In this document: positions 34,330-52,287 of the stretch, piece after piece
Layout of the letters: every line of letters starts with the position of its first letter
How positions within the stretch are numbered: the first letter of the stretch is position 1
Origin: a virus
Direction: 5' to 3' (one strand)
IMG/VR virus record: IMGVR_UViG_3300035698_034576
Location: 1 to 64,000 of that record
Length of the DNA stretch: 64,000 nt
The notes under the pieces: generated by a model
Seen by the model: only the letters and a program-made list of their open reading frames with translations
Databases searched by the model: none
What the model was told of the DNA's origin: nothing
Made by a program: the position numbers and the translations under genes

Positions 34330-34458
34330 ATGAATAATAGAAAAAGTATCAATGATTCCCCAAGATTCTTTAGAGTAAAAAAGGGACCAAAAGCAGGTGT
34401 CTATGTAAACAGTTTGGAAAACCGTCGACTAGATAGAGTTGGCAAAAAAAGTAAATAG
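34330..34458 (+). CDS. 42-aa peptide consisting only of the shared tag
   Basis: VKKGPKAGVYVNSLENRRLDRVGKK*. Confidence 0.6.
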   Translation: MNNRKSINDSPRFFRVKKGPKAGVYVNSLENRRLDRVGKKSK

Positions 34459-34702
34459 TTTTGAAAAATATAAAAAACTCTCCTTCTTTGGAGAAAAAAG
34501 TAAGAAAAAAAGAAGCTTCAAAAATTATAAAGATGGCAAAGAACTTGCCTTCCTCTGTTGAAGAAAAGGAGAGAGTGGAGGATCCTTTGATAGAAAGGAG
34601 TGATAACCTAAGTGTTTTTCTACAAGCTCACCAGAAGAGGCAATCGAATCAATTGTTACAGCCCTTTTAAGACTTACTAAAGATAAGCTCTAAAATCTTT
34701 GC

Positions 34703-34744
34703 AATCCCATCCCGTCAGATAGACTAAGGGTGGGATTTTTTTTT
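34703..34744 (+). terminator. intrinsic terminator
   Basis: AATCCCA / TGGGATT stem plus T run. Confidence 0.75.
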
Positions 34745-34870
34745 GCTTAGAGATAGTTTTGAGTAATAATTTTAAAAAAAAGTGAAAAAAAACACTACAA
34801 AAGTTTTTTATATAAGAAATTTTGCTATCTTTACAGTGTAATCAGTGTTAACAATTTAAAAATTTGTACC

Positions 34871-36803
34871 ATGAACATTTCAGAGACTTTATTAAAAGAA
34901 GTAAAAGAGAGCAATATGTATATAATGTTCTGCGACTACGATTCACTTGATGAGGTGTCACTTGAAAAAGCAAATGCAATAAACATAGGATCTTTTGAGC
35001 AAGGGTTAATCCCCCTGGGAACTTTTTTGAAGTGTCCAAAGAAAAAAGAAGTGACTTTAGAGTGGATAATGAACAAAGTCAACAGAGACAGTTATTTTGT
35101 CAACCTAAGCCAAATAATTAAAAAGGCTTTGAATATAGACGGACTGTCAGTTTACCCCACCTCTTATGGAGTAGGTTTTTTCCGGCTGTTTGGAATGAAT
35201 AAAAAAGAAGTTGACAGAGTTCATAATTTCTTCAAAGAAAATGGTATTGAATACCGAAATGAGCTTTCCGATGCAAGATATGTATATCGATTCAAAGTAT
35301 CAAAATCAAGGGATAATATAGAAAAATTAAAAAATATTAAAAAAAGTAGCTAAAAGTTTTTTATATAAGAAATTTTGTTATCTTTACAGTGTAATCAATG
35401 TTAATAATTTAAAAGTTTGTACCATGAAAAATTATTCAGTGGAATCAACAGAAAAAGCCCTGTTAAGAAAAGGCTTTCAACACAATGGTGGAAATAGTGG
35501 AATTGAATATTTCGGAAATGAAGAGCACTTTAATGAGGCGAATGTGTGCTCGCATTTCATTTATCACCACAATAACGGCCACTCTACCATAATGGCAACA
35601 GTTGAGAATTCGTTCAAAAATGGAAAGAGCTTTGCCACTATAAATGGAATTCACCCTGTTGAATGGTTTGAATCAGTTAAGAATGACATAAGCTAAAATT
35701 AAAGCCATGAAGACAAAAATCGAAATGATGCAAAAAGAGTTGACTGAACGCATGCTGATGCCATTGTTTGAAATACCAGCTATAAATATGGAAGATGGGA
35801 GTGAAAATTGGATATTGTTCGATGTATCCATTAGTCGAAATTCTATCTTTGCTCAACATATTGCCTTATCCTCAAAAGAGGAAAAGAGCAAAAAAATAGC
35901 TTACAAATCCATTCCCATTGACACGGATTTCTGTTTAGACCATCACTTAGAGCAATTGTATGAGCTTTGTATAGATGGCATAATTGAAGGAGACCTGTAC
36001 AGACTGCAATAAAACTTAAAAACCATGAAAAACATAACCACAACTGATAGCTATTCCAAGCAGTTAATATTAAAAGCCCATTTCAATCTTACTAATAAAG
36101 CCGGGAGACCAGAATATTCTCCTACTTCAACGGAAATTCAATCTGAAATTGATAAGATTATAAGTGGAAACAAAAGAGCTGACAGAGATTCAATAGCTGA
36201 TTTTTTCCAAACTGATGATTTGACAACCTATAGAATTTTGCAAAATTTAAGCTGGGGATTCTTTTTAAACCATTTTGGAGAAAATGCTAAAGCCTATTGG
36301 GATAAAGCTCACCCATTCTTTTATCCTGGAAGTGCTTCAAAGGACTACCATTCATTTAGCCTTTTGTTTATTTTGGACCATTTTGATTTATTTTCAAAAT
36401 CCCAATTTTGGACCAGCGCGGGCTGGAAGTTTAACCCAAACATAAAAAAAATGGTTTGGACTTATAATTCCGGCTATTCAAACATCACCATATAAAATTC
36501 AAGACAATGAAAACAAAAATTCCTAAATCAGTAAGAGACTCTATTGAAGAAATAAACGAAATGTTGCCAAAGATTCATGAAGCAGATGAATTTCCTTGTA
36601 GCTACTTTGGAGGCACCTGGCCAATTTATACAGGAATGACAAAGCCGATTGAAATTAAAAATCAGTTTGTTTATATCCGAGCCAACTCCGCTCATGGGAA
36701 TATTGGGCCGGAAAGATTTAACTGTAATGATGAATATCAAGTTGATTCATTGAAATTCCACCTTAAACACATCAAGCAGTCTTATAAAAAAGTTTTGAAG
36801 TAG
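34871..36803 (+). other. early small-gene cluster (34871-35353, 35424-35696, 35707-36012, 36025-36495, 36507-36803)
   Basis: ORFs behind class I promoters at about 34800 and 35353. Confidence 0.75.
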
Positions 36804-36860
36804 CAAATTAAAGTAATTTAGAAAAGGGTTAGTTTCAATATCAATCTTACTAAATTTTGT

Positions 36861-36874
36861 TATATTTATTAAAA
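36861..36874 (+). promoter_or_regulatory. putative late promoter (class III)
   Basis: TATATTTA(A/T)TAAA, also at 40236, 50954, 55739, 58518, 60167, ahead of structural, tagged or lysis genes. Confidence 0.65.
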
Positions 36875-36883
36875 ATAATTGAA

Positions 36884-37168
36884 ATGATTTATAAAAACGA
36901 AAGCATTCTAAAATCTTTTGGGATTGATATTGAAAAAGGAGGAAAGAAAACTGGTGTTTATGCTGACACCCACGAAAACAGAAAAGCTGGAAAAGTTGGA
37001 CAAAGTTACTTTAAAGAAAAAGAAGCCTCAAAAACTTCAACAAAGGGCCAAGATGAAGCATTTAAGCTTATCAACAATCTTCGCTCTAGTACTTTTAAAA
37101 ATCTAAATGATGATGAGCTGTTTGAATTTAGAAAACAGATGGCAAATTATCTTGATCTGAAAATGTAA
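36884..37168 (+). CDS. tagged putative head-packaged protein
   Basis: ILKSFGIDIEKGGKKTGVYADTHENRKAGKVGQSY. Confidence 0.75.
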   Translation: MIYKNESILKSFGIDIEKGGKKTGVYADTHENRKAGKVGQSYFKEKEASKTSTKGQDEAFKLINNLRSSTFKNLNDDELFEFRKQMANYLDLKM

Positions 37169-37990
37169 ATGAGCCTTAATAAGAATAACATATTGAAATC
37201 GTTTATTATCCCGGACCTCAATAAGGGGATAAAAACAGGTATTTATCTTGATACTCCCGAAAATCGAAAAAAGGGACGTGTGGGAATGAAGTATATAAAA
37301 GATAGTGTTTTGTATTATGATCAAAAACAAAACAAGCACATCTTTCGTGAGGTATTAGAAAATGAAAATGCAAAACACGATATACATTTATCTGGAGAAG
37401 AAAAAGTCCAGTACAATAAATTGTTTTTAGAAGGATCTCTTATCCGTCCAGCAAAAGGATATGGATTTTCAGGACTAAAGGAAAGTGATACAAAGAATTT
37501 AAAAATGTATCTAGCTAGCTATTGGCAAAACTACATGCCAAGTAAAACTGTTTCAAAAGAAGAGAATCTGAGAAAAGTTCCCTCTATGGTTAGAAGACTA
37601 AATTCAGTCAAGGAAGAGTACAATGACCAGCTTAAGGCAAAGCCCTGGTTAAAAGACAGTGCATTTGGCACCTTATATAATAGGTATGTAGGGAGAATAG
37701 ATAGTTTGTTAGAAGAGACAGCAGACATTCAAAATAAAGCTAAAGAAACTTTAGATAGTATAGATATTTACAACCAAGAAAAGCATGACCTCGAGGTTAT
37801 GAATAATGAGGAAGTGGATAATAAAATCTATCAACTTAAAGAAAAAGAGAAAGAAGTTTTGGCAGAAAAAAGAAAAAAAGAACTATCAGAAGCTCTCAAG
37901 GGAATAACTGATCCCGATAAAATAAACGAGATCAAAACCTCTTTTGAAATAAGCTGGTACAATGAAGGTCGTAAATATCATGGAGATTAG
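37169..37990 (+). CDS. tagged putative head-packaged protein
   Basis: ILKSF...LNKGIKTGIYLDTPENRKKGRVGMKY. Confidence 0.75.
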   Translation: MSLNKNNILKSFIIPDLNKGIKTGIYLDTPENRKKGRVGMKYIKDSVLYYDQKQNKHIFREVLENENAKHDIHLSGEEKVQYNKLFLEGSLIRPAKGYGFSGLKESDTKNLKMYLASYWQNYMPSKTVSKEENLRKVPSMVRRLNSVKEEYNDQLKAKPWLKDSAFGTLYNRYVGRIDSLLEETADIQNKAKETLDSIDIYNQEKHDLEVMNNEEVDNKIYQLKEKEKEVLAEKRKKELSEALKGITDPDKINEIKTSFEISWYNEGRKYHGD

Positions 37991-38012
37991 TAAAATTAAT
38001 AAAATTAACAAA

Positions 38013-38510
38013 ATGGAACATGTTAGATTAAACATTCTTAAATCCTTCGGAATTTCAGATATTAAAAAAGGTGGAAAGAAGACCGGAGTGTACGAAAACA
38101 CTTCAGAGAACAGAAAGCTTGGCAGAGTCGGCCAAAAATATTCTAAGGAGAAAGATACTCCTGAAAATAGAAAGCTTGGTAGAGCTAGTAAGAATAACCC
38201 TGGGATACAGGGGAATCAATCCTCAAATAAAGCCCCTAGCGACAAGAGAGCCAATGAATTTTTTGGAGAATCTAAGCATGGACAAGCGATAGAGGCTCTA
38301 ATGGATGGAACCTGGAATAGAGGAAAGGCTGAAAAGTATCTTGATGAGGTGAGTAGCGATGATAAGAAGTGGTCAAATATAATGAATAAAATATCTAGCG
38401 ATCTTGGAATAGATTCTTCTAAGCATGACACCTATGGAAGTCAAACAAAGGAGATGATTGATAAAATGGGAGAGCTTTATGAAATTAGAGGTGGAGAGGG
38501 CAAAAAATAA
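38013..38510 (+). CDS. tagged putative head-packaged protein
   Basis: ILKSFG..IKKGGKKTGVYENTSENRKLGRVGQKY plus partial duplicate DTPENRKLGR. Confidence 0.75.
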   Translation: MEHVRLNILKSFGISDIKKGGKKTGVYENTSENRKLGRVGQKYSKEKDTPENRKLGRASKNNPGIQGNQSSNKAPSDKRANEFFGESKHGQAIEALMDGTWNRGKAEKYLDEVSSDDKKWSNIMNKISSDLGIDSSKHDTYGSQTKEMIDKMGELYEIRGGEGKK

Positions 38511-38629
38511 AGCAGCTTCAATAAGCATTGCAGAAAAATTGTAGCTTAAATTTTTTACATTATTTAAAAATCATTATATTTGCTATCTAATTAGTACAAA
38601 CAATTAAACATTAACTAAATGCCATCAAC

Positions 38630-39049
38630 ATGAAAAAATCACGATTTTCGATTCTTTTGGTCGCAATCCTGTCATTGTTTTTCATAACAATGAGTTGTGA
38701 CTCAACTACAAAACCCGAACCGCCTGGAGAAAAGGATGTGTCCATAAATTTAGAAAATTCCTTTTCACAGACAATGGAGGTCCAGACGATGGAAATCAAT
38801 CTTGCTTCCCAGCAATCGCTTGAGGCGGAAATGACCATTGAAACTGTTTTTGAATATGAGAGAGCACTATTTCCCAGCAATTATATTTTATTTCAAGAAA
38901 AAAAGGGAATCGGTTTGCTTTCAGGAGACTTTCAATTTACAAATACTTATACAAAAAAGCTCGCCAGTGTTAATAATGAATCGAAAAATAGGAAGAGAGG
39001 TTGGGATTCATTCCCTTTATCTAAATCAGAAGCAACTTTTCTGTCATAA
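38630..39049 (+). CDS. putative lipoprotein
   Basis: MKKSR, hydrophobic core, ITMS-C; TATATTTG at 38575 upstream. Confidence 0.6.
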   Translation: MKKSRFSILLVAILSLFFITMSCDSTTKPEPPGEKDVSINLENSFSQTMEVQTMEINLASQQSLEAEMTIETVFEYERALFPSNYILFQEKKGIGLLSGDFQFTNTYTKKLASVNNESKNRKRGWDSFPLSKSEATFLS

Positions 39050-39075
39050 TAAATAAAAATTGGTTAAGAAGTGTT

Positions 39076-39111
39076 AGAGGCCAGGATTCACAGTCTGGCC
39101 TCTTTTTTTTT
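39076..39111 (+). terminator. intrinsic terminator
   Basis: AGAGGCCAG / CTGGCCTCT plus T run. Confidence 0.85.
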
Positions 39112-39243
39112 GCTTATAAATAAGAAATAAATTTATTTTTTAAAAAAAAACACTACAAAAGTTTTTTATATCAAAAATTTTGCTATCTTTACAGTGTAAT
39201 TGATAGCAATTACGGAAAATGATTAATTTAAAACATTTGTAAA

Positions 39244-40161: not shown

Positions 40162-40187
40162 AAAACTACATTAGAAGCCCATTTATT

Positions 40188-40216
40188 AAACCAGCCTATA
40201 AAGGCTGGTTTTTTTT
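40188..40216 (+). terminator. intrinsic terminator
   Basis: AAACCAGCCT / AGGCTGGTTT plus T run. Confidence 0.85.
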
Positions 40217-40275
40217 ATAGCTTGATAAATTTTGTTATATTTATTAAAAGTATTCTGAACTTACACTTTCAATAG

Positions 40276-41943
40276 ATGTTACAAAAAAATAAAAAATATT
40301 ATTCGTATGGGGTAAGTGGATCAAAAAACCGCCCCAAAGACCTTATATCCTCTTTTGAATCTATTGAAGAGGCTAGACAAATCCTTGATATAAAGGAGCA
40401 AAAGATTTTTCAAAAATCATTGACCTCTGATAACCCAGCAGATATTATCAAAGCAATGACAAGGCTAAACGATCCAACTCAATACAGCCCGTCAAATACC
40501 TTTAATAATACAAACGTACATGGAGGCAAGTCTTTACTGGTAGATCCTTATGGTCATCATTCAGCTAGTGGTTATCTCCAAAAAATCAGGCCTATAGATA
40601 ATGGCATTTTGCGCAATATGGCAAAATCTCCATTTGTTAAAGCTATTGTTGAAACAAGAATAGAGCAAGTAGCTTCCTTTGGATCTGTATCAGAAGATAA
40701 AGATGATATTGGATGGATGATAGTTAAGAGGAATGGTGAAAAAGTAGGGGATACCGATAGAGGGGAAATAGATAGAATTACTAAATTTGTTTCTGAAACA
40801 GGTGTTGATGAAAGTCGTTGGGTTAAAGATGATTTTGATAAGTTTCTTAGAAAAATAACTCAAGATACCCTTACTCTAGATGCATTGACATTTGAAATAG
40901 TAAGGACAAAAAATGATAAGCTTTACGAGTTTTTTGCAACGGACGCTGGCACATTTTATTTTGCTGATCCAAGGGAACTATTTTCCCAAAAAACTGAAAT
41001 AAATGGACACATGCCTTTGTATGTACAGGTTTTCCAGGGCCAAGTTATCAATAATTATTATCCATGGGAATTAGCTTATGGAATTAGAAACCCCACCTCT
41101 GATATTTATCAAAACGGGTATGGTAGGTCGGAACTGGAGGATTTAATAAATGTTGTCACTTGGCAATTGTATGGGATGCAATATACAGGTTCTTTCTTTT
41201 CAAGAGGATCTGCACCTAAAGGAATATTGAAGCTCTCTGGAAATGTGAATGAAAGAAGGTTAGCAGAATTTAAGCAACAATGGGCAGCACAAGTCCAAGG
41301 CATTAAAAATGCTTGGAAGACTCCGATTATGGAAGCAGATAAGATGGAGTGGGTTGATTTGCAACGAAACAACAGAGATATGGAATTCTCAAGCTGGATA
41401 GAATTCTTAACAAAGATTCTTTGTGGAGTTTATAAGATAGACCCTTCAGAAATAGGAATGCCAATGTCTGGTGGGGAAGGGGGAAAAAGTATGTTTTCTG
41501 ATGATACAAAGCAGAGGCAACTCTTTTCAAAAGAAAAAGGTTTGAAACCCCTATTGAAATTTATTGAGCAGAAAGTTGATAAATACATTGTTCAACAATT
41601 AAATCCTAACTATAAATTTATTTTTACCGGAGTTAACTTTAGTGATGCCAGTAAGGAGCTTGAGTCAGATATTAAAAAGGTTGGTAACTTTATGGGGTAT
41701 AAAGAGATTAGAAGAAAGCACAATCTTCCTGATGATATTGGTAAAGATGATTTGATTCTAAATCCTATCTTTATGCAGTCAAAAATGGCAGCACAGCAAG
41801 GAGGGAGCATGGGGGCAGAAGACCAATACAATGAAGAAGAATCTGGAGATTATAATTCTGACTGGATGAATGAGGGGGAAAATCCTTTTTTAAAATCTAT
41901 GAATGAAGCCACAGAAACGTTTATCCAAACACTGAAACCATGA
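40276..41943 (+). CDS. portal protein
   Basis: RNPTSD..NGYGRSELE, FFSRGSAPKGIL, W...G..NAWK.P, DMEF, IDPSEIG (SPO1/Twort-type). Confidence 0.92.
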   Translation: MLQKNKKYYSYGVSGSKNRPKDLISSFESIEEARQILDIKEQKIFQKSLTSDNPADIIKAMTRLNDPTQYSPSNTFNNTNVHGGKSLLVDPYGHHSASGYLQKIRPIDNGILRNMAKSPFVKAIVETRIEQVASFGSVSEDKDDIGWMIVKRNGEKVGDTDRGEIDRITKFVSETGVDESRWVKDDFDKFLRKITQDTLTLDALTFEIVRTKNDKLYEFFATDAGTFYFADPRELFSQKTEINGHMPLYVQVFQGQVINNYYPWELAYGIRNPTSDIYQNGYGRSELEDLINVVTWQLYGMQYTGSFFSRGSAPKGILKLSGNVNERRLAEFKQQWAAQVQGIKNAWKTPIMEADKMEWVDLQRNNRDMEFSSWIEFLTKILCGVYKIDPSEIGMPMSGGEGGKSMFSDDTKQRQLFSKEKGLKPLLKFIEQKVDKYIVQQLNPNYKFIFTGVNFSDASKELESDIKKVGNFMGYKEIRRKHNLPDDIGKDDLILNPIFMQSKMAAQQGGSMGAEDQYNEEESGDYNSDWMNEGENPFLKSMNEATETFIQTLKP

Positions 41944-42479
41944 GAGAAAATATACTAAGGTCCTTTAAAGAGTATGACTTAATGAAAGGAAAGAAAACCG
42001 GAATATATACAAACACTCCTGAAAACAGAAAAAAGGGTAGAGTTGGTCAAAAATATTCTAAAGAAGATGAAAAAGAAGAAAGTCCAATAACTGTAGAGGT
42101 AGATGATGAAAGAACTATTTATCATTATGGAAATAAAGGCTCTTTAATTATGACAGAAACAACTCCAGAATACGAATTTAAAGATGATATAACAGAGGAG
42201 AAAATGAATGAGCTAGGATTGGAGGAAGATGATTTTATTTTCAAAATTGAACATATTGAGATTAATGACCAAGAAAAAGGTAAGGGTTTTGCAAAAAAAT
42301 TGATGCAAAGGGCTATGAAGGACTTTAGTTCAAAAACTATTTATCTTAATGCATCTCCTATGGGATTTAAAGGATTGGATCTTGATGATTTAACAAAATT
42401 TTATGAATCCTTTGGTTTTTCTGTTTTTAAAAATGATAGCAATAACAACTTAATGATAAAACAAAATGGATCACATTAG
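41940..42479 (+). CDS. tagged GNAT acetyltransferase
   Basis: Tag plus IEI...KGKGFAKKLM...IYLNASP...LTKFYESFGF. Confidence 0.8.
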   Translation: MRENILRSFKEYDLMKGKKTGIYTNTPENRKKGRVGQKYSKEDEKEESPITVEVDDERTIYHYGNKGSLIMTETTPEYEFKDDITEEKMNELGLEEDDFIFKIEHIEINDQEKGKGFAKKLMQRAMKDFSSKTIYLNASPMGFKGLDLDDLTKFYESFGFSVFKNDSNNNLMIKQNGSH

Positions 42480-42873
42480 ATTAAACATTCTAAAGTCCTT
42501 TGGCATTGACATTGAAAAAGGTGGAAAGAAGACGGGGATTTATACTGACACTTACGAAAATAGAAAAAAGGGAATAGTAGGCCAAAAATATTCTAAGGAT
42601 GAAATCGCAAAGGAGAATACCTACTTCAATACGTATGGAGAGGCAATTAGCTATGCCTATGAGCAAGCATTTAAGAAATTTAAAGTAGATGAGGACGATT
42701 GGTTTATGGCAATGTCTACTGGAGGAAAGCCTTCTCGTAATAAAACAAAGAGTGGAATTATAGCCCTTTATGACAAGGAGACTGGGAAAGAGTCTAAAAA
42801 AGCTTTGTCTATTCAGGTTTACAACATGGACAGGGATAAAAAATCATTTGAACTAAATTGGTACATAAGCTAG
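42466..42873 (+). CDS. tagged putative head-packaged protein
   Basis: ILKSFGIDIEKGGKKTGIYTDTYENRKKGIVGQKY. Confidence 0.75.
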   Translation: MDHIRLNILKSFGIDIEKGGKKTGIYTDTYENRKKGIVGQKYSKDEIAKENTYFNTYGEAISYAYEQAFKKFKVDEDDWFMAMSTGGKPSRNKTKSGIIALYDKETGKESKKALSIQVYNMDRDKKSFELNWYIS

Positions 42874-42877
42874 TAGC

Positions 42878-43749
42878 ATGAGGACAGGATTAACAATAGA
42901 GCTATTAAAATCAAATTTTAAGGAAGTTGAGGAAAAGTATAGGGGAACCTTAAAAATGAAGGAAGATCCAAAAGAATCTATTTTTTTTGATTGTAAATCA
43001 GATGGTCCAGAGAAAATAAAGGTTTTGGAAGCTATCCGTTTTTTTGAAGATAAAATTAAAAAGCAAGGTCTTGAGATTAATTCTAAAGATAAAAAATATT
43101 TGAATAGTCTAAAAGATCTTTATAAGGAAATGAAAGGAGATCAGCCTTAATGCAAATAATAAAGGATATAGCAAAATCATTTAATAAATCTAATTCCTCA
43201 ATAGAGAAGGTTTCTTTAATGAGGAAGTCTGGAGTAAAAAATGGTAGAGATTTATCTAGAATAAGCGGTATTCCTATTAGTCAATTTATAAGACTGGGAA
43301 TAGAGGATGGTGCATCAAAAGAGAAGATAAATGATTTAGCAGGTGCAAAATTAGGCTCTGAAGAAATTCATTTTTACGAAATAGTAGGAGCCCTTTTATC
43401 TCTTGATCTTCTTAAAAAACTAATTATTGTAAGTGAACTTGACTTTGCAGAAACTTTACTAATGGGTAGCTCTATCTCTTATGATAAAGAAAATGATGTG
43501 TTAAAGAGTAAAAACATCACTGTAGACATTAGAAGCAGCTTGCCTGGGGACATTAATTTAGATATTGATACATTACTGCTTAAACCTAACATAGGAGGTT
43601 ATTTAGCTAAAAATACCCTCCTGATAAAAGCTATAGAGGATTTATCTATAAATCAACTAGACATATTGTACAAGGGAATTACTGAAAGGAACCCTAACCA
43701 TAGTTTGCTAAGTGAAATAATATTAACTATTCAAAAAAAATTACAGTAA
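42878..43749 (+). other. two hypothetical CDSs (42878-43150, 43150-43749)
   Basis: Coupled ORFs, both with an early (L/I)xKS motif. Confidence 0.7.
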
Positions 43750-43750
43750 A

Positions 43751-44260
43751 ATGAATACAGAATATATCCAAGATTATAAAAATAATATATCAAAAAACAT
43801 ATTTAATAGTTTTGATATATTAAAAGCTTTTGCCCCGGAGGGCTCTCGTAAACAAACCAAAAGAGGAGAGTGGTATGTAAAACAAGGAGGTAAATGGGTT
43901 TATGAGAAAAAAGGAGGGAGAGCCTCTAAAGAAACCGAAGATACTAGTTCACAAGAGGGAGGATCGTCCGAGGGAAATATAAAATCTAAATCAAGCCGAA
44001 ATATGGGCTTTTTAAGAGAACTTTCTGACAGTGAGTTTAAAAATTTAGGCATGATTGGTTTTGATAAAATATCAAGATATAAAGCTGTTTATGCAAAAGC
44101 CGCTCATGAGATAATGGAGGAGGGCATAAGGCTTGGATATGTTGAGAAAAAAGATTATGGAAAAGGAAAGGGTAAATACACAACAACAGAGGCTTCAGGC
44201 AAAATGTCCCTATCTTTGATAATTCAGAAAATAAAGGATAATGAGTCTATTAAAGATTAG
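43751..44260 (+). CDS. putative head-packaged protein with second tag type
   Basis: FDILKAFAPEGSRKQTKRGEWYVKQGGKW. Confidence 0.65.
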   Translation: MNTEYIQDYKNNISKNIFNSFDILKAFAPEGSRKQTKRGEWYVKQGGKWVYEKKGGRASKETEDTSSQEGGSSEGNIKSKSSRNMGFLRELSDSEFKNLGMIGFDKISRYKAVYAKAAHEIMEEGIRLGYVEKKDYGKGKGKYTTTEASGKMSLSLIIQKIKDNESIKD

Positions 44261-44277
44261 TTCAAAAATAAGCGAAT

Positions 44278-45666
44278 ATGGAATTTGAAAGAATAGACAA
44301 ACAGGAAACTGCCCTTTTTAATCTAGAAAAATCTAGAAAAACAGGCTATTATAAAGATAATCGCGAAAATCGTCTAAAAAATAGAGTAGGTCAGAAATAT
44401 ACCATAGATGTAACTGACGAAAAAGATCTTGGAAAAGTACAACGCCAACTAGAAGAAGCCCGTAACAGAAAAGATATTTACAATCCTTCAGAAGAAAATG
44501 ACCAGGAGATAGAGAGGCAATTTTTGGAAAATTTCGAAAAATTCGCTAAAGAAGATGCTGAGTGGCTTAAAGAAAATCCAATGGGGTCTCGCACAAGAGA
44601 TTGGAGAAGGAACGATGAAATTATCAGAGCAAATCTTTTATTAGAAGAGGCAGAAGCTTCTAAACAAATTTCTTTAGAAACTGACCAAGATAAAGAGGCT
44701 TTTATACATGCTTCTCAGGTTACAAGAGCAGAGAGCCAATTTTTTATGGGAGAACTTATTGATAAAATTAAGCTCAATCCTGAAAACTCAACTTTCAAGG
44801 AAGAATTGGTTTGGCTAACAACTAAAGATCATGAGAGAGTCAGAAGATTCAATATCTTAGCTAGGGAAAACAATATAACTCAATTAGAACCCTTTAGATT
44901 TGTAAAAGAGACCAATAAACCTGTGCTTGTCTGGGATTCAGAAGAGAAGTATTCTTCATTAACAAATAAAGGACCAAAAGTTAATAAAGAGAATCTTAAA
45001 AGATCAACATATAAGGATTCTTTAGGGGCTTTTGAAGCGTGGGAAACCGAAGGCAGTAAATTAAGTTTTCCTTGGGAGTCTGCCAAAATAGGAGGTTCTG
45101 TTTCATATAATGTTGATGAAGCTAGTGAAGCTATTAGAGATTATCTGAGTAGGCTCCCTATTTTAGAGGTTGATCCTTGGGATGTTGAAGTGTTTTTAAA
45201 ATCTCCTCATGATTTTATAAAAGAAAAAGGCCATTTTAATCTAATAGATAGTGAAGACAAAATTTTTGGAAGTATAATTATATCCACAAAAGAAAAAGAT
45301 TTTTTATTCCTCAGAAAAATTAACGATCACTATGTAAAGGACAGTTCTAAGAAAAAGACTAGCATAGGTAAGTCTTATGTTGTAAAATTATTACCTATAC
45401 TTAATCCTATTTCAGGACTTAATTATAAGCATCCAATATCAGAGTTGCCTTTAATTGTTGTTCCAGAAGTGGCTACAATATCTGAAAGTAGATTGGATAG
45501 AGCTAAAAGAAAAATTAGAGAATATGATTTAGATGAATTGTCTAGGCTTATTGAGGAAGAGGAAGCTTTGCCAAAATATAAGCAAGATAAAGATGATCTT
45601 GACCTTTTATATTTTAAAAGGACTAAATATTTTGAATTTAAAAGGGAAATCGAAAAATATACATAA
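44278..45666 (+). CDS. tagged putative head-packaged protein
   Basis: LEKSRKTGYYKDNRENRLKNRVGQKY. Confidence 0.75.
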   Translation: MEFERIDKQETALFNLEKSRKTGYYKDNRENRLKNRVGQKYTIDVTDEKDLGKVQRQLEEARNRKDIYNPSEENDQEIERQFLENFEKFAKEDAEWLKENPMGSRTRDWRRNDEIIRANLLLEEAEASKQISLETDQDKEAFIHASQVTRAESQFFMGELIDKIKLNPENSTFKEELVWLTTKDHERVRRFNILARENNITQLEPFRFVKETNKPVLVWDSEEKYSSLTNKGPKVNKENLKRSTYKDSLGAFEAWETEGSKLSFPWESAKIGGSVSYNVDEASEAIRDYLSRLPILEVDPWDVEVFLKSPHDFIKEKGHFNLIDSEDKIFGSIIISTKEKDFLFLRKINDHYVKDSSKKKTSIGKSYVVKLLPILNPISGLNYKHPISELPLIVVPEVATISESRLDRAKRKIREYDLDELSRLIEEEEALPKYKQDKDDLDLLYFKRTKYFEFKREIEKYT

Positions 45667-45667
45667 A

Positions 45668-48244
45668 ATGAAAACTGATTTAATTAGTAAGAGCAAAGGA
45701 CTGGGAATAGCTAGATCATTTGAAAATGATATTGAGAAGGCTAAAGCTTTCCCTCCAGGGACAATTAAAAATTATAATGGCAAGAGATATATTAAAGTAT
45801 CAGATGCAAAAGGTTTGGAATGGAAAGACCAATGGAAAATGATCCATAGTAAAAAACAAATAGAGGAAACTCTTGAAGAGTTTGGTAATGTTCCTGGACT
45901 CTCTGGTAAACTTTCTGGATTGCCTGCTGATGCTGAATCAAAACCAAGCGCTCCCTCTGTTGAAAAAAAGGAAACCTCAGGAAATGATTCAAGTAATGAT
46001 CCAGTTATAGGCACTTTAAATAAGGTATCTACATCAAAAGATCATTCTCCTTTGACGAGACTTGAAAATATGTACAGCTATGGGTTGGAAGATCCAATGA
46101 CTTTAGCTACATTTTCTGGAGCCCATTATTCTGAAGTTCAGAAATTTTTAGCAAATAAAAAAGAAACTGAAATTAAATCTGCTTTTACAGAAGTTGAAAA
46201 AGAAAGGATTGCCGCAGCGACAAGAAAGAAAAGACTTTCTCTTTATGCGGAACTAGCTGGCATTTCTGTTCATGATAGATGGAGAACGTATGATACCATT
46301 CTTGAAAACACTATGGAGGGCAAGTTCAAATCTATGATTGCATTTGGATCAGGTGGAGTAGGAAAAGCTCAGCCTTTGTACAGTAAGGTATTAACTCCTG
46401 AAGGCTTTGTAAAAATGGGGGAATTAAAAGTTGGAGATGAAGTTGTAACTCCTAAAGGGAGTTTATCTAAAATCTCAGATATTTATCCACAAGGCAAACG
46501 GGCTGTTTATGAATTAACCATGGAGGATAACACTAAAATTAGATCTGATGTGGAACATTTATGGAAAGTTCTAGACACAGAGGATGATTTTAGTGAAAAA
46601 GTATTATCCCTGGAAGACATAGTGGAAAAAGGCTTAAAAACTGAAAATGGCTGGAGATTTGGAATTCCATTTATTGATAAGCCTTTTGGAGCTCCAAAAA
46701 ATATTGATTTGCCGGTTAACCCTTGGCTTATTGGATGGCTACTTGGAAATGGTTGCTTTTCAAACAATCTTTCCTTTGATATTAATCCATTAGATAAAGA
46801 ATTCCTTTTAAGCAAAATTGAAGAGTATCTTCCAAAAAATTTAAAGATCTCTAAGAAAATAAGCCCCACCAAGTTCAGTATCATTGGGAATGATAAATTA
46901 GATGAAAAAGAATTAGAGCTAGCAATCAATCAGCTGTCCCTGCCTGAAAGAGAAAACTGTTCTGCATTTATTCCTGGGGTATACAAAAGATCTTCTGTTG
47001 AACAGAAGCTCCATATTATACAGGGCTTAATGGATTCAGCTGGATATATAGATCAAGCTGGAATGCTAAAATTTTCCTCTCCATATAAGATATTGGCTCA
47101 GGATTTTTATGATTTAGTTAAATCATTTGGAAGAATGGCTTATATTGAAGAAAAGACCGTATCATTTTTTGGAACTGATTCAAGAGAAAATTGGATAGTA
47201 TCTTTTGATTTAGGAGAAGGGTACCTTCCTTATTCCTCCCCGGCAAGATCTAATGAATACCGTCCTAAGGATAAAGAAGGATCCATGCCAATAGTGGATA
47301 TTTCGTTTATAGCCATAGAAGACACCCAATGTATTTCAATAGAAGATGCAGATAAAATGTATATCACAGATGGTTACATTCAAACCCATAATACATGGAA
47401 CATGCAATTAGCAACTAAGAAATTTGTTGTTAATAGGGAAACAGGAATTATTATGAGAAAAGAGGATTTCAAGAAAACTTTTGGTCCAGATGCTACTTGG
47501 GATGATTCTCACATTAAAACAGTTCCAAAAAATGATTACCGGGAACTGCGCCAGTTTGATCCTACAAAAAAGTTTAGTGCTTCAGATTACGAATATGTAG
47601 TTATAGGGGGTTCAATATCCCCAGTTATGACATATTCAAGTATCTATCAACATAACAAGAAGATTATTGTTTTTGATGATATTGATAAGATCCTTAAGAA
47701 TAGAGAGGGGCTTGATGTTCTTAAAGGGGCTTTGGATGGAGAAATAAAAGATATTTCATGGGGTACTTCAACAACTCCTAAGGATATGCTAGGAGTTGAT
47801 GTTCCTAAAACCTTTAAGTTTGAAGGCAGGGCTATATTTATAACCAACCTAACCAATGAACAACTTAAGACTCCAGAGCTACAACCTATCACTCAGTCTA
47901 GAGCTGAGCCTGTGGATTTAACAATGACAAAAGAGGAAACTATTCAAAAGCTACAGACTTTGGTTAAGACTATGGAAGTTAAAGATGCGGCTGGAGAGGT
48001 TATTGATGCTTCCCCTGAGGACAAGCAACAGGCCTTAGACTATATGATTGAAATGAAGGATATAATTCATGCAGGATACTTCAATGCTAGAAAGCTAGGA
48101 GCGCTAACAAAACTTCTTAAGATTTCCAAAAATGATACCGAACTGTTTAGAAAAATGGCTTCATCTTCTCTACAGGTCCCTACAGGCGAGCAAATACCTG
48201 AGGATTGGATTTTCAATTATGACGATGATGAAGGAATAGTTTAA
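45668..48244 (+). CDS. P-loop (AAA-like) ATPase with class 3 intein
   Basis: Walker A GSGGVGK|T, Walker B IVFDD, IFITN; N-terminal IEKAKAFPPGT. Confidence 0.85.
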   Translation: MKTDLISKSKGLGIARSFENDIEKAKAFPPGTIKNYNGKRYIKVSDAKGLEWKDQWKMIHSKKQIEETLEEFGNVPGLSGKLSGLPADAESKPSAPSVEKKETSGNDSSNDPVIGTLNKVSTSKDHSPLTRLENMYSYGLEDPMTLATFSGAHYSEVQKFLANKKETEIKSAFTEVEKERIAAATRKKRLSLYAELAGISVHDRWRTYDTILENTMEGKFKSMIAFGSGGVGKAQPLYSKVLTPEGFVKMGELKVGDEVVTPKGSLSKISDIYPQGKRAVYELTMEDNTKIRSDVEHLWKVLDTEDDFSEKVLSLEDIVEKGLKTENGWRFGIPFIDKPFGAPKNIDLPVNPWLIGWLLGNGCFSNNLSFDINPLDKEFLLSKIEEYLPKNLKISKKISPTKFSIIGNDKLDEKELELAINQLSLPERENCSAFIPGVYKRSSVEQKLHIIQGLMDSAGYIDQAGMLKFSSPYKILAQDFYDLVKSFGRMAYIEEKTVSFFGTDSRENWIVSFDLGEGYLPYSSPARSNEYRPKDKEGSMPIVDISFIAIEDTQCISIEDADKMYITDGYIQTHNTWNMQLATKKFVVNRETGIIMRKEDFKKTFGPDATWDDSHIKTVPKNDYRELRQFDPTKKFSASDYEYVVIGGSISPVMTYSSIYQHNKKIIVFDDIDKILKNREGLDVLKGALDGEIKDISWGTSTTPKDMLGVDVPKTFKFEGRAIFITNLTNEQLKTPELQPITQSRAEPVDLTMTKEETIQKLQTLVKTMEVKDAAGEVIDASPEDKQQALDYMIEMKDIIHAGYFNARKLGALTKLLKISKNDTELFRKMASSSLQVPTGEQIPEDWIFNYDDDEGIV
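46367..47392 (+). mobile_element. class 3 intein (342 aa) with LAGLIDADG endonuclease
   Basis: Starts AQP; EHLW, TQCISI, QTHN give the WCT triad; GWLLGNG and GLMDSAG. Confidence 0.9.
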
Positions 48245-48264
48245 ACTAATTAAAAATTAAGCAA

Positions 48265-48432
48265 ATGACATCAAAAGAAGATTTTAAAAATCAATACAGA
48301 AATAGTTCCATTGAGGCTTTGGACAGCATTATTGCTGGGATGCTTGCTAGCAAATCCGACAGCAATTTGTTATATGCCCTTACAGAGTTAGTTGATGAAA
48401 AGTTAGAAGAAGAAAGACTGATTTCTTCTTGA
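48265..48432 (+). CDS. 55-aa ORF in frame with the downstream peptidase
   Basis: MTSKEDFK...ERLISS*; separated from 48475 by two TGAs. Confidence 0.55.
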   Translation: MTSKEDFKNQYRNSSIEALDSIIAGMLASKSDSNLLYALTELVDEKLEEERLISS

Positions 48433-48474
48433 CGATTCAGAGCTAATTGACGATTAATCTTAAAACACAATCTA

Positions 48475-50202
48475 ATGTTTGGAACAGACCTAAGGGGAAA
48501 GCGCCAGCCTATTGGTACAACTACTGTTCGCGGAGACGGTTCAAGGTATATAAAAATATGTCTTGAACCGTATGGCGATAACTGGCTTAGAGTAGTAATT
48601 CCTGGAGAGACAAAAAGAATTATTGAATCTTTAGATACCAAAGGAACAGCTATTCGTAAGTATGATAAGCCTTTAAATGGAGTAAGACTTTTGGACAAGC
48701 TAATTGTTGATTTTTATAAAGATAAAATAGGCTATTCAAAAGAAGCTGCTGAATCTATGCCAGGGAAGTTTAAAGCTATTGGAGGTTTTGAAGGAGCTTC
48801 TGTATATTCTTTTTCTAATTTTTTCACTCAAATAGCAATGGCTAAGAGGCAGAATAAAAAATTAGATAGCAGAGCGGCAATAAGAAAAGCAGAAATTATA
48901 GCTTGGGAAAAACAAGTTGCTTTAGTTGGGGAGGATGGAGCTGGGACCGAACCCTTAGATTATGATTTTGAAGGGGATAAAACTCCAATCAGAGAAGTCT
49001 CTAAAGAAGAAATAGAGGGTTTGTCTTTAACAATGGATGAAGCTTTAAAAACTCTTCGCAGAGGGGTCACTTTTGACGGAGAGCAAAAAGAGGCTTACTG
49101 GGGAGGATTAGAAAAAGCTGGAAAATGGCCTGAAAAATATAGGATAATGCCAGAAATTGTGGCTGAAAGAGCTGCCCTTGAAGACAATTTTAAAAAAGCT
49201 TTTAAGGGAGAGCATGACTGGATTGTTAAGGAAACATTTGATCAAAATATAGATATTTACTTTGATAGATACTTCAGAAACTTCCGTGATCAAATAATGG
49301 TAGATGAAGGAAAGAGAATATCTAAAGAATACGAATTAGACCTTGATGGAGATACAATAACTTTTTATGATAAGTTTTATAATATAATGCATAATCTTAA
49401 AGAGTTTGAAATAGACAGCTTAGCTAAACTTAGATTCAAAAGTAAGATTGGCAAAAATCTTAATGGAAAGTGGAAAAAAGAACATATTGCTATATTAGAA
49501 AATACTGAATTAATTTCCCAAAGTCTTCCTTTAGGCCATTTCATAAATAATCCTCGGCTCAGCACTTTTCAGGCCCCAGATTATTTTATTGGAAGTGGAT
49601 ATGCCTCTTATAATCAGTCATCAAATACTATTGAGTTTTCAAGACAATTTATGAACAATGCTTCTGCCCAAGGACACTTGACAGATCCTTTAGAATTTTT
49701 TTCAGTTGCTCCCCATGAGATAGGACATGCTGTTTCTAGGTATTTCAGGAAAGATATTCATCCTTTAGGGTATCAAGAATGGGTAAGTTTATGTGGGTGG
49801 GATAACAGGCAAGAAAATTTGCATGCAACAGGTGATGATAGAGATATTGAAAGACTAGGAGAGAACAATAGTATCAAGTTGATAACAGAGTATGCTAATA
49901 AGTCCCCTGAAGAAGCTTTTGCGGAATATTATTCATGTTATTTCCAGAATAAAGAAAATATTGACAATTGGCTTGATACAAATGATCCCTCTTTTCTGTC
50001 CAAAACACAAAGGCCTAAAATGAACTATATTTCTTTTTGGAAAGAGGATGTTAGGACAGGAAAAATGCATAAAATGAGTTATCCTAAAGTAAGTCGTGAG
50101 AATGGCATTTATTACAGAAATTCTGTTGTTGGAACTTCTCAAATGACTTCAAACAAAGAAATATTTAGTTTCATGAGAGAGGTCATATTTGACAATGTTT
50201 AA
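48475..50202 (+). CDS. zincin metallopeptidase-domain protein
   Basis: HEIGH...ITEYA..SPEEAFAE. Confidence 0.8.
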   Translation: MFGTDLRGKRQPIGTTTVRGDGSRYIKICLEPYGDNWLRVVIPGETKRIIESLDTKGTAIRKYDKPLNGVRLLDKLIVDFYKDKIGYSKEAAESMPGKFKAIGGFEGASVYSFSNFFTQIAMAKRQNKKLDSRAAIRKAEIIAWEKQVALVGEDGAGTEPLDYDFEGDKTPIREVSKEEIEGLSLTMDEALKTLRRGVTFDGEQKEAYWGGLEKAGKWPEKYRIMPEIVAERAALEDNFKKAFKGEHDWIVKETFDQNIDIYFDRYFRNFRDQIMVDEGKRISKEYELDLDGDTITFYDKFYNIMHNLKEFEIDSLAKLRFKSKIGKNLNGKWKKEHIAILENTELISQSLPLGHFINNPRLSTFQAPDYFIGSGYASYNQSSNTIEFSRQFMNNASAQGHLTDPLEFFSVAPHEIGHAVSRYFRKDIHPLGYQEWVSLCGWDNRQENLHATGDDRDIERLGENNSIKLITEYANKSPEEAFAEYYSCYFQNKENIDNWLDTNDPSFLSKTQRPKMNYISFWKEDVRTGKMHKMSYPKVSRENGIYYRNSVVGTSQMTSNKEIFSFMREVIFDNV

Positions 50203-50734
50203 AAATATTTTTACGCAAACAAATTTCAACTACTTTCACTTGATGAACAAGTCAATAGAATCAAAACATTTATCTAAGGAAAATAAAGGGATCACAAAAG
50301 CTGTGATTGGAATAGTTTTTAATAAAGAGGGCAAAGTTTTACTAGGCTTTTCCTCTCTTAATGATAACTTAAGAAAAGATAAGTGGTGTTTTCCTGGGGG
50401 AGGACGTGAGAAAGGAGAGAGTGATTATCAAGCTGGGGTTAGAGAAGTAAAAGAGGAAACAGGTATTACAGCTAAACCTTTGAATCTATCCCCCTTTATA
50501 GACACAGAGGTTCCAAATATAACTTTTGTTATTATGGTAAAAACAGGAGGAAAGCTACAACCTAATGAAGAATTTCATTATTTAGACTGGTTTTCTCCTG
50601 ACAGCCTGCCAAAAAACATTGTAAAGTCAAATGCTAAAATAGTAAATATTGCCATCAAAACAATAGAAGAGGCAACTAAGAATATTTCTTCATTTTCCTT
50701 CATTGGCAAAGATTCAGTAATAGGGAGTTTTTAA
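50189..50734 (+). CDS. NUDIX hydrolase
   Basis: PGGGREKGESDYQAGVREVKEETG. Confidence 0.9.
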   Translation: MTMFKNIFTQTNFNYFHLMNKSIESKHLSKENKGITKAVIGIVFNKEGKVLLGFSSLNDNLRKDKWCFPGGGREKGESDYQAGVREVKEETGITAKPLNLSPFIDTEVPNITFVIMVKTGGKLQPNEEFHYLDWFSPDSLPKNIVKSNAKIVNIAIKTIEEATKNISSFSFIGKDSVIGSF

Positions 50735-50770
50735 CTTAAAGGACTTACAGAATTCAATAAAACTGTGAAT

Positions 50771-50926
50771 ATGAAAGAACCAAAAGTTACATCAAAAGAT
50801 AGGGCTAAATTCCCTAAAGTTCAGGACGCTTATGAAAATGCCTTTAAAAAATCTTACCAGGAAATGATAAAAGCTTCCCTGACTGAACTTATGGATAAGT
50901 TGGGCAAAGCTATTAAAGGAGTTTGA
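50771..50926 (+). CDS. 51-aa hypothetical protein
   Basis: MKEPKVTSK...AIKGV*. Confidence 0.55.
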   Translation: MKEPKVTSKDRAKFPKVQDAYENAFKKSYQEMIKASLTELMDKLGKAIKGV

Positions 50927-50982
50927 AAACTATTGACCTATGACAATTTTTACTATATTTAATAAAATTAATACATAAGAAA

Positions 50983-52287
50983 ATGGACGGTTTAATTAAC
51001 TTAGAAGATAAAAGAAAGATAATAGCTTCAAATTTTATAGAGTTTGAACCTAATATCTTAAAAGCCAGAGCTGGAAGATATGCTGATACATCAGAAAACC
51101 GATCTAAAAAAAGAGTTGGTGAGCAGTATGGATCTAAGAAAGAAGAGGAAGTTAAGGAGGGGAGGGATCCTAAAAAAGAGGACCCAGAAACATCAAGATC
51201 AAAAAAAGAAGAGGACCCAAAGAAAGAGGGTAAAGAAAAAGTAGCAAAAACAACATCAGAACATGCAAAAGACACTTCAACAGAAGATCTTCAGAATTAT
51301 GTAGATAATTTCAACCCAGATTCAGTTGTATTCAATAATCAAGAGCTTTTTGATGAAGCAAAAAAGGAGCTTGCTTCAAGGTCAAAAGAAGGAAAAAGTA
51401 AAACAGAAGTTGGTATGATGAAGATTGAAGATAAAATATCTTCTTTAAAACAAACCATTGAGGCTACCAGCTCCTTATTAGACACCCTTCCAGAGGGAAA
51501 AATGAAAGAAGGAATTGCTCTTAGCATAGAGCAGGGGGAAGATGAGATAAGAAGCCTAGAAAGTGAAAAAACTTCTCTTGAGAAAAAAAATAAAAAAGAG
51601 AAAGAGCCTAAAATTTCACCAGAAGCCTTCATTGCAACATCATCAGTGAATGATCTAGCCAAGAAATCTAGCGAACTTGCAAAAGAATCTTCAGAAGCTT
51701 TATCAGAAGGAAATTATGAGCTGGCTTCAGAATTAGCAAAACAATCAAGTCAATATGCACAGAGTATATCTGATAAGATGGGAGAAGCCTCTAAATCTAA
51801 TGATAAGGAAAAGCTAATAAAAGAAAGAGCTTCCCTTGTTAAGAAGCAAGATAAGTTACTTGGTCAAGTTAGCTCAACTTCAAAGGGTAGGCAACAAACA
51901 ACCTTAAATAACGCTAGAATAAAAGAAATTGATGCAGAGCTTAGCGGTAGTCCCAAGGAGAAACCTTCTGAAAAGAGCGGGGATAGGGTTACTCTAAATG
52001 ATCACATGTTAAAAGAGGCAAAGGATAAACCTTCTAAAAAAAATATGATTGATGCCAAAATAGACAACAAAGAAGACTTTATCGATTCTATTCAAGAAGA
52101 AGACAATGAAGAGATTAATAAAATTTGGAAAAAAGTTTTAGAAGAGGAAGTTGTATCAGCTTTAGATAAAGAAGGCATAAATGACACTCAAGAAGCCAGA
52201 GATGATATTATGAATAACGATAAATTTCATGATACTATTTTTGGAAATGCTTATACTAAAGCTTTTAAAGAATATTCAAAAAAATAA
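50983..52287 (+). CDS. tagged, highly charged putative head-packaged protein
   Basis: ILKARAGRYADTSENRSKKRVGEQY; late promoter at 50954. Confidence 0.75.
   Translation: MDGLINLEDKRKIIASNFIEFEPNILKARAGRYADTSENRSKKRVGEQYGSKKEEEVKEGRDPKKEDPETSRSKKEEDPKKEGKEKVAKTTSEHAKDTSTEDLQNYVDNFNPDSVVFNNQELFDEAKKELASRSKEGKSKTEVGMMKIEDKISSLKQTIEATSSLLDTLPEGKMKEGIALSIEQGEDEIRSLESEKTSLEKKNKKEKEPKISPEAFIATSSVNDLAKKSSELAKESSEALSEGNYELASELAKQSSQYAQSISDKMGEASKSNDKEKLIKERASLVKKQDKLLGQVSSTSKGRQQTTLNNARIKEIDAELSGSPKEKPSEKSGDRVTLNDHMLKEAKDKPSKKNMIDAKIDNKEDFIDSIQEEDNEEINKIWKKVLEEEVVSALDKEGINDTQEARDDIMNNDKFHDTIFGNAYTKAFKEYSKK

Follow-up and report, generated by a model that had tools for sequence, protein, structure and literature searches.

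Why eight otherwise unrelated proteins should begin with the same short sequence is the question raised by a stretch of viral DNA of 64,000 nucleotides, referred to here as the window, which comprises the first 64 kb of IMG/VR record IMGVR_UViG_3300035698_034576 (83,151 bp, rated 75% complete). The window has a G+C content of 30-37%, and its + strand holds nearly all of the genes. A preliminary description of this DNA had noted that eight open reading frames (ORFs) share an N-terminal tag fused to unrelated sequence and had proposed that the tag loads exchangeable proteins into the phage capsid. The interpretation that was judged best in the present analysis, and that we hold with about even confidence, is that a portable module of about 45 residues may mark exchangeable enzymes as cargo of the phage head.

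The existence of the tag was established by pattern and by profile, both of which returned exactly the eight ORFs that had been described. The strict pattern G.[YFW]..[TNSD]..NR.{3,4}[RKI][VILA]G, applied to the six-frame translation of the window, gave eight matches, all on the + strand and all N-terminal, and the pattern ENR....[VILA]G found the same eight ORFs and no others. A profile (A1) built from the eight tags and run over the whole 83,151-bp record recovered the same eight with E values of 1.3e-26 to 2.5e-20, together with a half-repeat at 38151-38183 (E 0.017). Chance or low complexity as the source of the motif was ruled out by the eight exclusive matches and by E values down to 1e-26.

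Behind the tag the eight proteins are unrelated: one is GNAT-like, several are charged or helical and of no known family, and one consists of the tag only. The last of these (34330-34458, core from 34396) is a 42-residue ORF, the most divergent copy and possibly a remnant, with no late promoter motif upstream; the claim of unrelated cargo therefore holds for seven of the proteins and fails for this one. Its stop lies just after an A7 run, and a frameshift that would fuse it to the ORF at 34461 was ruled out by a stop at 34452-34454 in that frame. The gene at 36884-37168 encodes 94 residues with a small, helical and charged cargo (core from 36953) and has a promoter-like motif at 36858-36873 directly upstream. 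It is followed by 37169-37990 (273 residues, core from 37238), with a cargo of no known family, and by 38013-38510 (165 residues, core from 38085), which contains the half-repeat of the core. The 179-residue product of 41940-42479 (core from 42000) is the GNAT-like acetyltransferase, an assignment made earlier that received moderate support (PF14542, E 5.4e-6, 26.9 bits with a cut-off of 30; phrog_1758, E 2.7e-4). The start of this gene overlaps the stop of the portal gene, and the next tagged gene, 42466-42873 (135 residues, core from 42535, cargo of unknown type), likewise overlaps the gene before it; its tag module was modelled. The remaining two are larger, 44278-45666 (462 residues, core from 44344), also with an unknown cargo, and 50983-52287 (434 residues, core from 51073), which is Lys/Glu-rich and is preceded by a promoter motif at 50951-50966. 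All eight genes are on the + strand.

The sequence Phi-x-K-(G/S/A) precedes the core in all eight tags, with 5-7 residues between the Lys and the Tyr. The ending (Q/M/E)xY, described earlier as usual, was present in seven of the eight, the exception being 34330, and the leader ILKSF, described as frequent, was exact in four, the 41940 protein reading ILRSF. An alignment (A2) of 46 tag copies from the window and from IMG/VR loci showed that the tag has about 45 residues and three parts: 1) a loosely conserved leader that often ends in Phi-x-K-(S/G/A)-F, 2) after a variable spacer, a second Phi-x-K-(A/S/G) that is mostly (L/I)-E-K and is called here the Lys site, and 3) a core of 20 residues, GxYxDTxENRKxGRVGQxY, in which Y, N-R and V-G are invariant. 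AlphaFold2 run on A2 gave the leader a mean pLDDT of 52-55 and residues 21-40 a pLDDT of 83-92, with a strand-short helix-strand arrangement. Foldseek of the model against the PDB returned no match, and the ESM Atlas gave no usable feature match, its structure rows having TM values <0.5. For the tag in the eight proteins, neither Pfam (E<=1) nor the PHROGs (E<=0.1) yielded a family (the search did not include NCBIfam), and the tag in three database relatives (P0001, P0002, P0004) likewise had no family match. A literature search on core motif strings, including phage and kinase contexts, found no relevant paper.

The Lys site recurs in the head genes. The head maturation protease is encoded at 59160-60155 (phrog_1028, E 1.7e-44), the scaffold protein, assigned by position and composition, at 60194-61075 (293 residues), and the major capsid protein, a homologue of SPO1 Gp6.1, at 61128-62579 (PDB 9vel, E 4.6e-69), all on the + strand. 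The portal protein (40276-41943, + strand) has Bacillus and Lysinibacillus matches annotated as portal protein, shares 41% identity with its counterpart in Chryseobacterium phage MA9V-3 and 37% with those of the DAC-type Bacteroides phages, and has weaker matches that extend to SPO1-like and Twort-like phages. Judged from the protease, capsid and portal matches, the window carries an SPO1-type head module such as myophages have, and the host is probably a member of the Bacteroidota.

The frequency of Phi.K[SAG] was compared with that in composition-matched shuffles for the 75 + strand ORFs of at least 80 residues in the window, and only three exceeded a z of 3. The scaffold has 16 sites where 1.9 are expected (z 11.2), seven of them (L/I)EK(S/A/G), so the earlier statement that the motif saturates the scaffold was borne out; the protease has 11 where 2.1 are expected (z 6.3). 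The third is a 199-residue protein of no known family encoded at 43150-43749 (+ strand; 6 sites, 1.5 expected, z 3.9), which may be a further substrate of the head protease or may be scaffold-like. Twelve IMG/VR relatives have a protease, a scaffold or a fused protease-scaffold with 3-26 sites against 1-4 expected, and MA9V-3 has 21 against 2.6. The T4 scaffold is riddled with sites for gp21, and the site-rich scaffold and protease of the window follow the same pattern. The motif also stands near the capsid N-terminus, as had been noted: the window protein reads LQK-A at residues 28-31. About 30 variable residues are followed by a Lys-Ala pair (K30-A31) that is invariant in 11 of 11 capsid sequences and aligns to LNK-A of SPO1 Gp6.1. 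The cargo parts of the tagged proteins are not enriched, as expected if the leader alone is removed; the 50983 protein, for example, has one site, that of the tag itself, where 2.9 are expected. The Lys site in the tag fits the cutting rule that we infer for the SPO1-type head maturation protease of this lineage.

The coupling of site and core was counted in the best 120 proteins of a word-indexed tag-profile search, with the 9 residues before each core as the interval. Five recognized kinases were left out of the phage-type count, which gave Phi.K[SAG] upstream of 121 of 142 cores over a background of 8.3%; in the five eukaryotic kinases, the site preceded none of the 24 cores. The 142 cores include about 10 from eukaryote-like fragments (P0013, P0046, P0053), in each of which only one core has a site within 9 residues, and the longer spacing of the window's own tags is missed by the 9-residue limit, so that the true share in phage proteins is higher. 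Of the 121 sites, 104 have L or I at P3 and 75 have E at P2, with A, S or G at P1', and the gap from Lys to Tyr is 5 residues in 88 and 6 in 27. As a separate observation, the N-termini of the scaffold proteins (window 60194 and the relatives L055, L056 and L061) read I-x-K-(S/G/A)-(F/Y), for example ILKGF, IKSF, IEKAF and IKKAY, resembling the ILKSF leader of the tag, and the two may share one binding or cutting site. Prediction of a complex of tag, scaffold and capsid protein gave no answer (score 0.00) and counts neither for nor against binding.

The tagged genes are also associated with the head genes by their arrangement. The promoter-like motif TWWTATATTTAWTAAA occurs eight times on both strands together, where 0.29 would be expected, and its six + strand sites (36858-36873, 40233, 50951, 55736, 58515 and 60164) all fall at 36.8-60.2 kb, directly before 36884, the portal gene, 50983, 55763, 58553 and the scaffold gene. 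All tagged genes but one, seven of the eight, belong to tight gene runs that have this motif at their head. The claim that tagged genes stand behind late-type promoters thus applies directly to 36884 and 50983 and to the others through membership in the same runs, and it does not apply to 34330. Because the motif is common to the tagged, portal and scaffold genes, the tagged genes would be expressed late. A near-identical stretch of about 45 nt (aaaagttttttatataagaaattttgctatctttacagtgtaat...) was seen upstream of 34871, 35424 and 39244 (about 34790-34870, 35340-35423 and 39160-39243) and represents a further class of promoter or regulatory element, separate from the late-type motif. Tagged genes of the window also sit between the portal gene and a gene of weakly assigned MuF-like type (52309).

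Searching with the tag led to 17 IMG/VR records that are 50 kb or longer, and 16 of them carry 1-6 tags each. The portal was 35-50% identical to that of the window in 16 of 17 records, a set in which the window's own record replaces the tagless G012, and the known carriers therefore form one lineage. In the 16 records in which both the portal and the capsid gene were located, the interval between the two holds 26 of 44 tags, where 9.7 would be expected from its length. A sample drawn blind to the tag consisted of the 80 best matches among at least 537 portal relatives in IMG/VR; 35 of these portal loci have a tag in their flanks. Downstream of the portal there are 47 tags and upstream of it 6, and the opposite strand has none. 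A downstream tag was present in 25 of the 51 loci having at least 9 kb of downstream sequence. The only cultured carriers found were the DAC-type Bacteroides phages, which grow on Bacteroides thetaiotaomicron. A tblastn search with a single tag against cultured phages gave no match at E<=1, a method that is too insensitive, since DAC22 has five tags by profile.

A second, unrelated tag occurs in three window proteins encoded in the same gene run and has approximately P.GT....G..Y.K...G.W at the start. In two of the three it follows ILK-A or IEK-A. The proteins are encoded, all on the + strand, at 43751-44260, where ILK-A is followed by the hairpin-like motif G..Y.K...G.W; at 45668-48244, a P-loop ATPase interrupted by an intein; and at 48475-50202, a HEIGH (zincin-like) protein with the tag at its N-terminus and a weak ATLF match (E 0.0028). 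A profile made from these three and two MA9V-3 proteins was used for a local search of the 80 portal loci, where 29 copies lie downstream and 3 upstream of the portals, and nearly all of the copies listed follow Phi.K[GAS]. Of the 51 loci with sufficient downstream sequence, 23 have the first tag only, 10 the second only, 2 both and 16 neither. Neither Pfam nor the PHROGs gave a family for the second tag, and most of the loci in which it occurs are without the first. In relatives it was seen as approximately IGEIR.W.G..Y.K...G.WV.V at N-termini or domain joints, including L001 3379-5016 and 5683-6129. The ATPase at 45668 bears the second tag, while its ortholog in DAC22 (39% identity over 195 residues, E 4e-38) bears the first, and by this exchange on orthologous proteins the two tags appear to be functionally interchangeable.

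If the tag marks head cargo, the steps might be as follows. The tagged genes would be expressed late, along with those of the portal, scaffold and capsid, and their products would be taken into the prohead. The head protease would clip each of them after the Lys, so that the mature cargo would begin with the core. The cargos, among them an acetyltransferase, NUDIX proteins, ADP-ribosyltransferases, kinases, a zeta-toxin kinase, an ATPase and unknowns, would then exit together with the DNA when a cell is infected. Related phages have these cargos strung together in a long polyvalent protein with a tag at each joint, and here they are separate tagged genes. Late expression, uptake, cleavage, ejection and the partner of the core are inferred; observed directly were the two-part motif, the statistics of its site, where the genes lie, the families of the cargos, their fused forms and the swap of tags.

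The nature of the cargo points in the same direction. An exhaustive search of 1.84 billion cluster representatives with a tag profile, a step proposed earlier for cataloguing cargos, found 1,607 proteins at E<=0.001, 518 of them at E<=1e-10. The known cargo families are of the polyvalent type (NUDIX, ART-PolyVal, Kinase-PolyVal, DUF5661 and DUF6496), and the cargo of DAC22_77 is a Zeta_toxin domain (E 1.1e-32). The tag is N-terminal in 8 of 8 window proteins and 5 of 5 DAC22 proteins, and the first core lies within 40 residues of the start in 67 of 109 database relatives. In the long proteins tags stand at domain boundaries. P0039 has NUDIX at 150-248, a tag at 304-317, ART at 354-486, DUF5661 at 532-589 and a second tag at 599-612; P0051 has a tag at 1077-1090, ART at 1121-1240 and a tag at 1259-1272, as well as NUDIX; P0007 combines a homologue of the window HEIGH protein with DUF5661 and two tags of the first type; and in P0061 Kinase-PolyVal is fused to the tag. 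The description of the tag as an N-terminal leader accordingly holds in the window and does not hold in relatives, where it is often internal. The window proteins have a single cargo each and are not multidomain chains. Set beside relatives with tags at domain joints, the window looks like a polyvalent protein split into single genes, each retaining its tag. Iyer et al. (2017; PMC5512222), in the passages covered, predict that polyvalent proteins are packaged and injected, often by fusion to MuF or portal domains, and argue that they are processed by peptidases; term searches of that text returned no mention of the tag motif.

These fused forms raise the alternative that survives best, itself improbable, namely that the module is only a joint that can be cut by a protease, either the head protease or the zincin-like peptidase encoded at 48475, and has been left as an N-terminal relic after gene splitting, uptake being achieved in another way, for example through a MuF-like protein or the portal. 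The tags of fused relatives fall exactly between domains, the site is in fixed register with the core, and the HEIGH protein is encoded in the same gene run as tagged proteins and is fused to tags in P0007; zincin-like peptidases have been proposed as processors of polyvalent proteins in the part of PMC5512222 seen. A bare linker, on the other hand, needs no 20-residue core with invariant Y, NR and VG and a confidently predicted fold, and the core is kept in animal kinases that have no cutting site. Nor do the tag-only ORF of the window and the small tag-only proteins of 72-85 residues among the database matches separate anything.

The occurrence of the core outside phages bears on what the label could be. 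Of 256 proteins classified among the matches listed in the tag-profile searches, 152 combine the Lys site with 1-3 cores; another 74 have at least 3 cores and no Lys site, 44 of these with a protein-kinase catalytic-loop motif; 22 fit neither group, most of them having a single core and a site slightly further upstream; and 8 have no core by pattern. Six multi-copy proteins were looked up, and all six belong to animals (Biomphalaria, Saccostrea, Plakobranchus, Mactra, Mercenaria and the starfish Acanthaster), and all four site-bearing proteins looked up are metagenome proteins on contigs of 62-122 kb. Arrays of 3-13 cores that lack the Lys site stand ahead of the protein kinase domains of molluscs, a starfish and a fly (P0002, P0003, P0121-P0141 and others), the animal unit being approximately TYVDNa.NRsLGRVGmP.GSaV, with Ser-rich linkers separating the repeats. 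For these animal arrays, neither a described repeat family nor a paper was found. By these comparisons, the core is an independent mini-domain and the Lys site a phage-specific addition to it.

Alternatively, the core could be a cytoplasmic adaptor that docks enzymes to a conserved cellular target, nucleic acid or protein, in bacteria and animals alike, its place in the head module reflecting late co-expression only. This explanation was considered rather unlikely. The core arrays in front of animal kinase domains favor it, as does the fact that many of the cargos are enzymes that use nucleotides and that some tagged genes are far from the head genes; a weak similarity to the RlmI-type sequence KTGxYLDQRENR (E 0.019-0.94, five chains of one family) can be added. 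An adaptor would nevertheless leave unexplained the scaffold-type motif found only in the phage proteins (121 of 142 cores as opposed to 0 of 24), the bias toward the interval from portal to capsid, and the presence of an unrelated second mini-module behind the same site. A very improbable third alternative, that a single dedicated enzyme recognizes or modifies the tag, for example a kinase acting on the invariant Tyr or another maturase encoded nearby, draws on that Tyr, on the fusion in P0061, on the animal kinases that bear the core and on a radical-SAM-like ORF adjoining a tagged gene in G008, but no enzyme was seen with the tag in all genomes (no systematic co-occurrence test was made) and no kinase was identified in the window.

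Several observations weigh against the interpretation of the tag as a label for head cargo: 1) the core, which is present in animal kinases that have neither a capsid nor a Lys site, therefore cannot be a capsid-specific signal, 2) conservation is stronger in the core than in the leader, the reverse of what holds for the T4 targeting sequence, 3) 42 of 109 proteins have their first core beyond residue 40, and internal copies are common, 4) in the window, four of the eight tagged genes are 2-6 kb upstream of the portal gene, in DAC22 four of five are about 80 kb from it, and in G008 four of six tags are outside the interval from portal to capsid, 5) 16 of the 51 portal relatives with at least 9 kb downstream have neither tag, 6) the relatives are phylogenetically clustered and many loci are close kin, so that the counts overstate the number of independent events, 7) the specificity of the protease is deduced from site statistics, and 8) no virion proteome or N-terminal sequence was found for any tagged phage. 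The distant tagged genes of DAC22 adjoin polysaccharide deacetylase-like, coiled-coil and metallophosphatase-like proteins. With regard to the seventh point, the literature search found no published measured cleavage site for SPO1- or Twort-type capsid proteins, and the specificity was therefore taken from the statistics; no paper was found to confirm that Twort-like capsid proteins are matured after a Lys, which the preliminary description had regarded as established. The Felix O1 paper describes a capsid protein that is uncleaved and a protease of a different family.

The idea of capsid loading thus retains the support of the Lys site match, the gene position and the exchangeable cargos and loses the notion of a core specific for the capsid. 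Nothing was found to support the further suggestion that the tag binds DNA or the ejection path, and the eukaryotic core has little net charge. In a more speculative and rather doubtful extension, the core would be a free-standing mini-domain common to phages and animals that binds one universal partner. In this lineage every effector released by the protease would then start with the core, and the cargo would owe its retention in the DNA-filled head, or its guidance to a target in the infected cell, to the core and not to the leader. Were this so, the module and the second tag would form a plug-in system in which a 45-residue cassette makes any enzyme injectable, and the same cassette would serve as the breakable joint of polyvalent proteins.

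A close precedent is found in T4, in which the internal proteins IPI-III and Alt carry a capsid targeting sequence and are processed by gp21. The element in the window resembles it in that a short N-terminal sequence is common to unrelated proteins encoded near the head genes, ends at the putative head-protease motif that also riddles the scaffold, and is attached to exchangeable effectors. The differences are that no sequence likeness is apparent (judged by the T4 consensus, with no alignment made), that the predicted cut is after Lys rather than after Glu, that the protease belongs to phrog_1028 and the capsid protein is like SPO1 Gp6.1, that the best-conserved part of the tag lies past the cut and would stay on the mature protein, and that further copies of the element are located within long proteins and in kinases of animals. 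Encapsulin cargo-loading peptides are short portable peptides that direct unrelated enzymes into an HK97-fold shell with no protease step; the tag is likewise short, portable and found on unrelated enzymes, whereas its sequence is unrelated and it would be cut.

The polyvalent proteins, known from phages and conjugative elements and treated in the covered part of PMC5512222, share with the tagged proteins a repertoire of NUDIX, ART-PolyVal, Kinase-PolyVal, GNAT and zincin-like domains, a location beside the portal gene and, if the weak assignment in the window holds, a MuF-like gene, and predicted delivery with the DNA, and some tag-bearing relatives (P0039, P0051) are true polyvalent proteins. 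They differ in that the window genes have a single cargo and that the tag matches no polyvalent-associated Pfam family at E<=1. In phiKZ and SPN3US, ejection proteins bearing propeptides are processed by the prohead protease (PMC5694885, PMC7411985, PMC10052503). According to the passages covered, these giant phages likewise cut many head proteins at one short motif and package and eject a mass of protein; they are of another lineage with another motif, and a shared conserved mini-domain is not reported in those passages. Finally, a 12-residue sequence of RlmI/YccW-type RNA methyltransferases (PDB 1wxw, 4dmg, 2as0, 3vse, 3c0k), the KTGxYLDQRENR mentioned above, resembles the first half of the core. 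The match covers profile positions 15-34 only, with a best E of 0.019, and the methyltransferases lack the GRVG half and have another context, so that the likeness is possibly a structural analogy only.

Head-targeted internal proteins that are trimmed by a protease and polyvalent effector proteins were already known. What is new is the lineage, the Lys-type site, the conserved mini-domain that would stay on the cargo, its role at polyvalent joints, the apparently interchangeable second tag and the presence of the core in animal kinases. If the proposed reading is correct, the Bacteroidota phages concerned, a large group of which most members are uncultured (at least 537 portal relatives, and the tag in 1,607 protein clusters), would have their own capsid-loading label. 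The label would offer a sequence rule with which to predict the proteins injected first into gut and marine Bacteroidota, an explanation of how polyvalent proteins are built and dismantled, and a tag with which foreign proteins could be packed into phages of this group. The kinase arrays of molluscs and starfish point to a function of the core beyond phage assembly.

Several other genes of the head region deserve mention. The gene at 52309-54414 (+ strand) encodes an intein-bearing protein (Intein_splicing, E 2.7e-11, and Hint matches) that is possibly a MuF-like minor head protein. This is a weak assignment: a search with PF04233 (MuF) of the 17 records gave sub-threshold matches in three, at the matching place, and none in the window record, and the likeness to DAC22_203 was seen by eye only. 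The ATPase at 45668 has intein-type PHROG matches and a weak LAGLIDADG_3 match, and inteins were thus seen to interrupt two genes of the head region, 45668-48244 and 52309-54414. A NUDIX hydrolase without the first tag is encoded at 50189-50734 (+ strand), and NUDIX-tag fusions occur in uncultured relatives. The two cultured relatives DAC22 (MT074141.1, 115675-116046) and MA9V-3 (PV245944.1, 88841-89197) resemble the window in retaining a NUDIX gene in the interval from portal to capsid. In a 124-kb relative, the locus L057 (G008:C1:17800-22300) has a radical-SAM-like ORF from 1293, with CxxxCxxC recognized by eye, between a tagged gene and the protease-scaffold gene. The 270-residue protein encoded at 54404-55216, after the MuF-like gene, has phrog_2859 (unknown function) as its sole match, and a DGHHR motif seen by eye recalls ParB-like nuclease domains.

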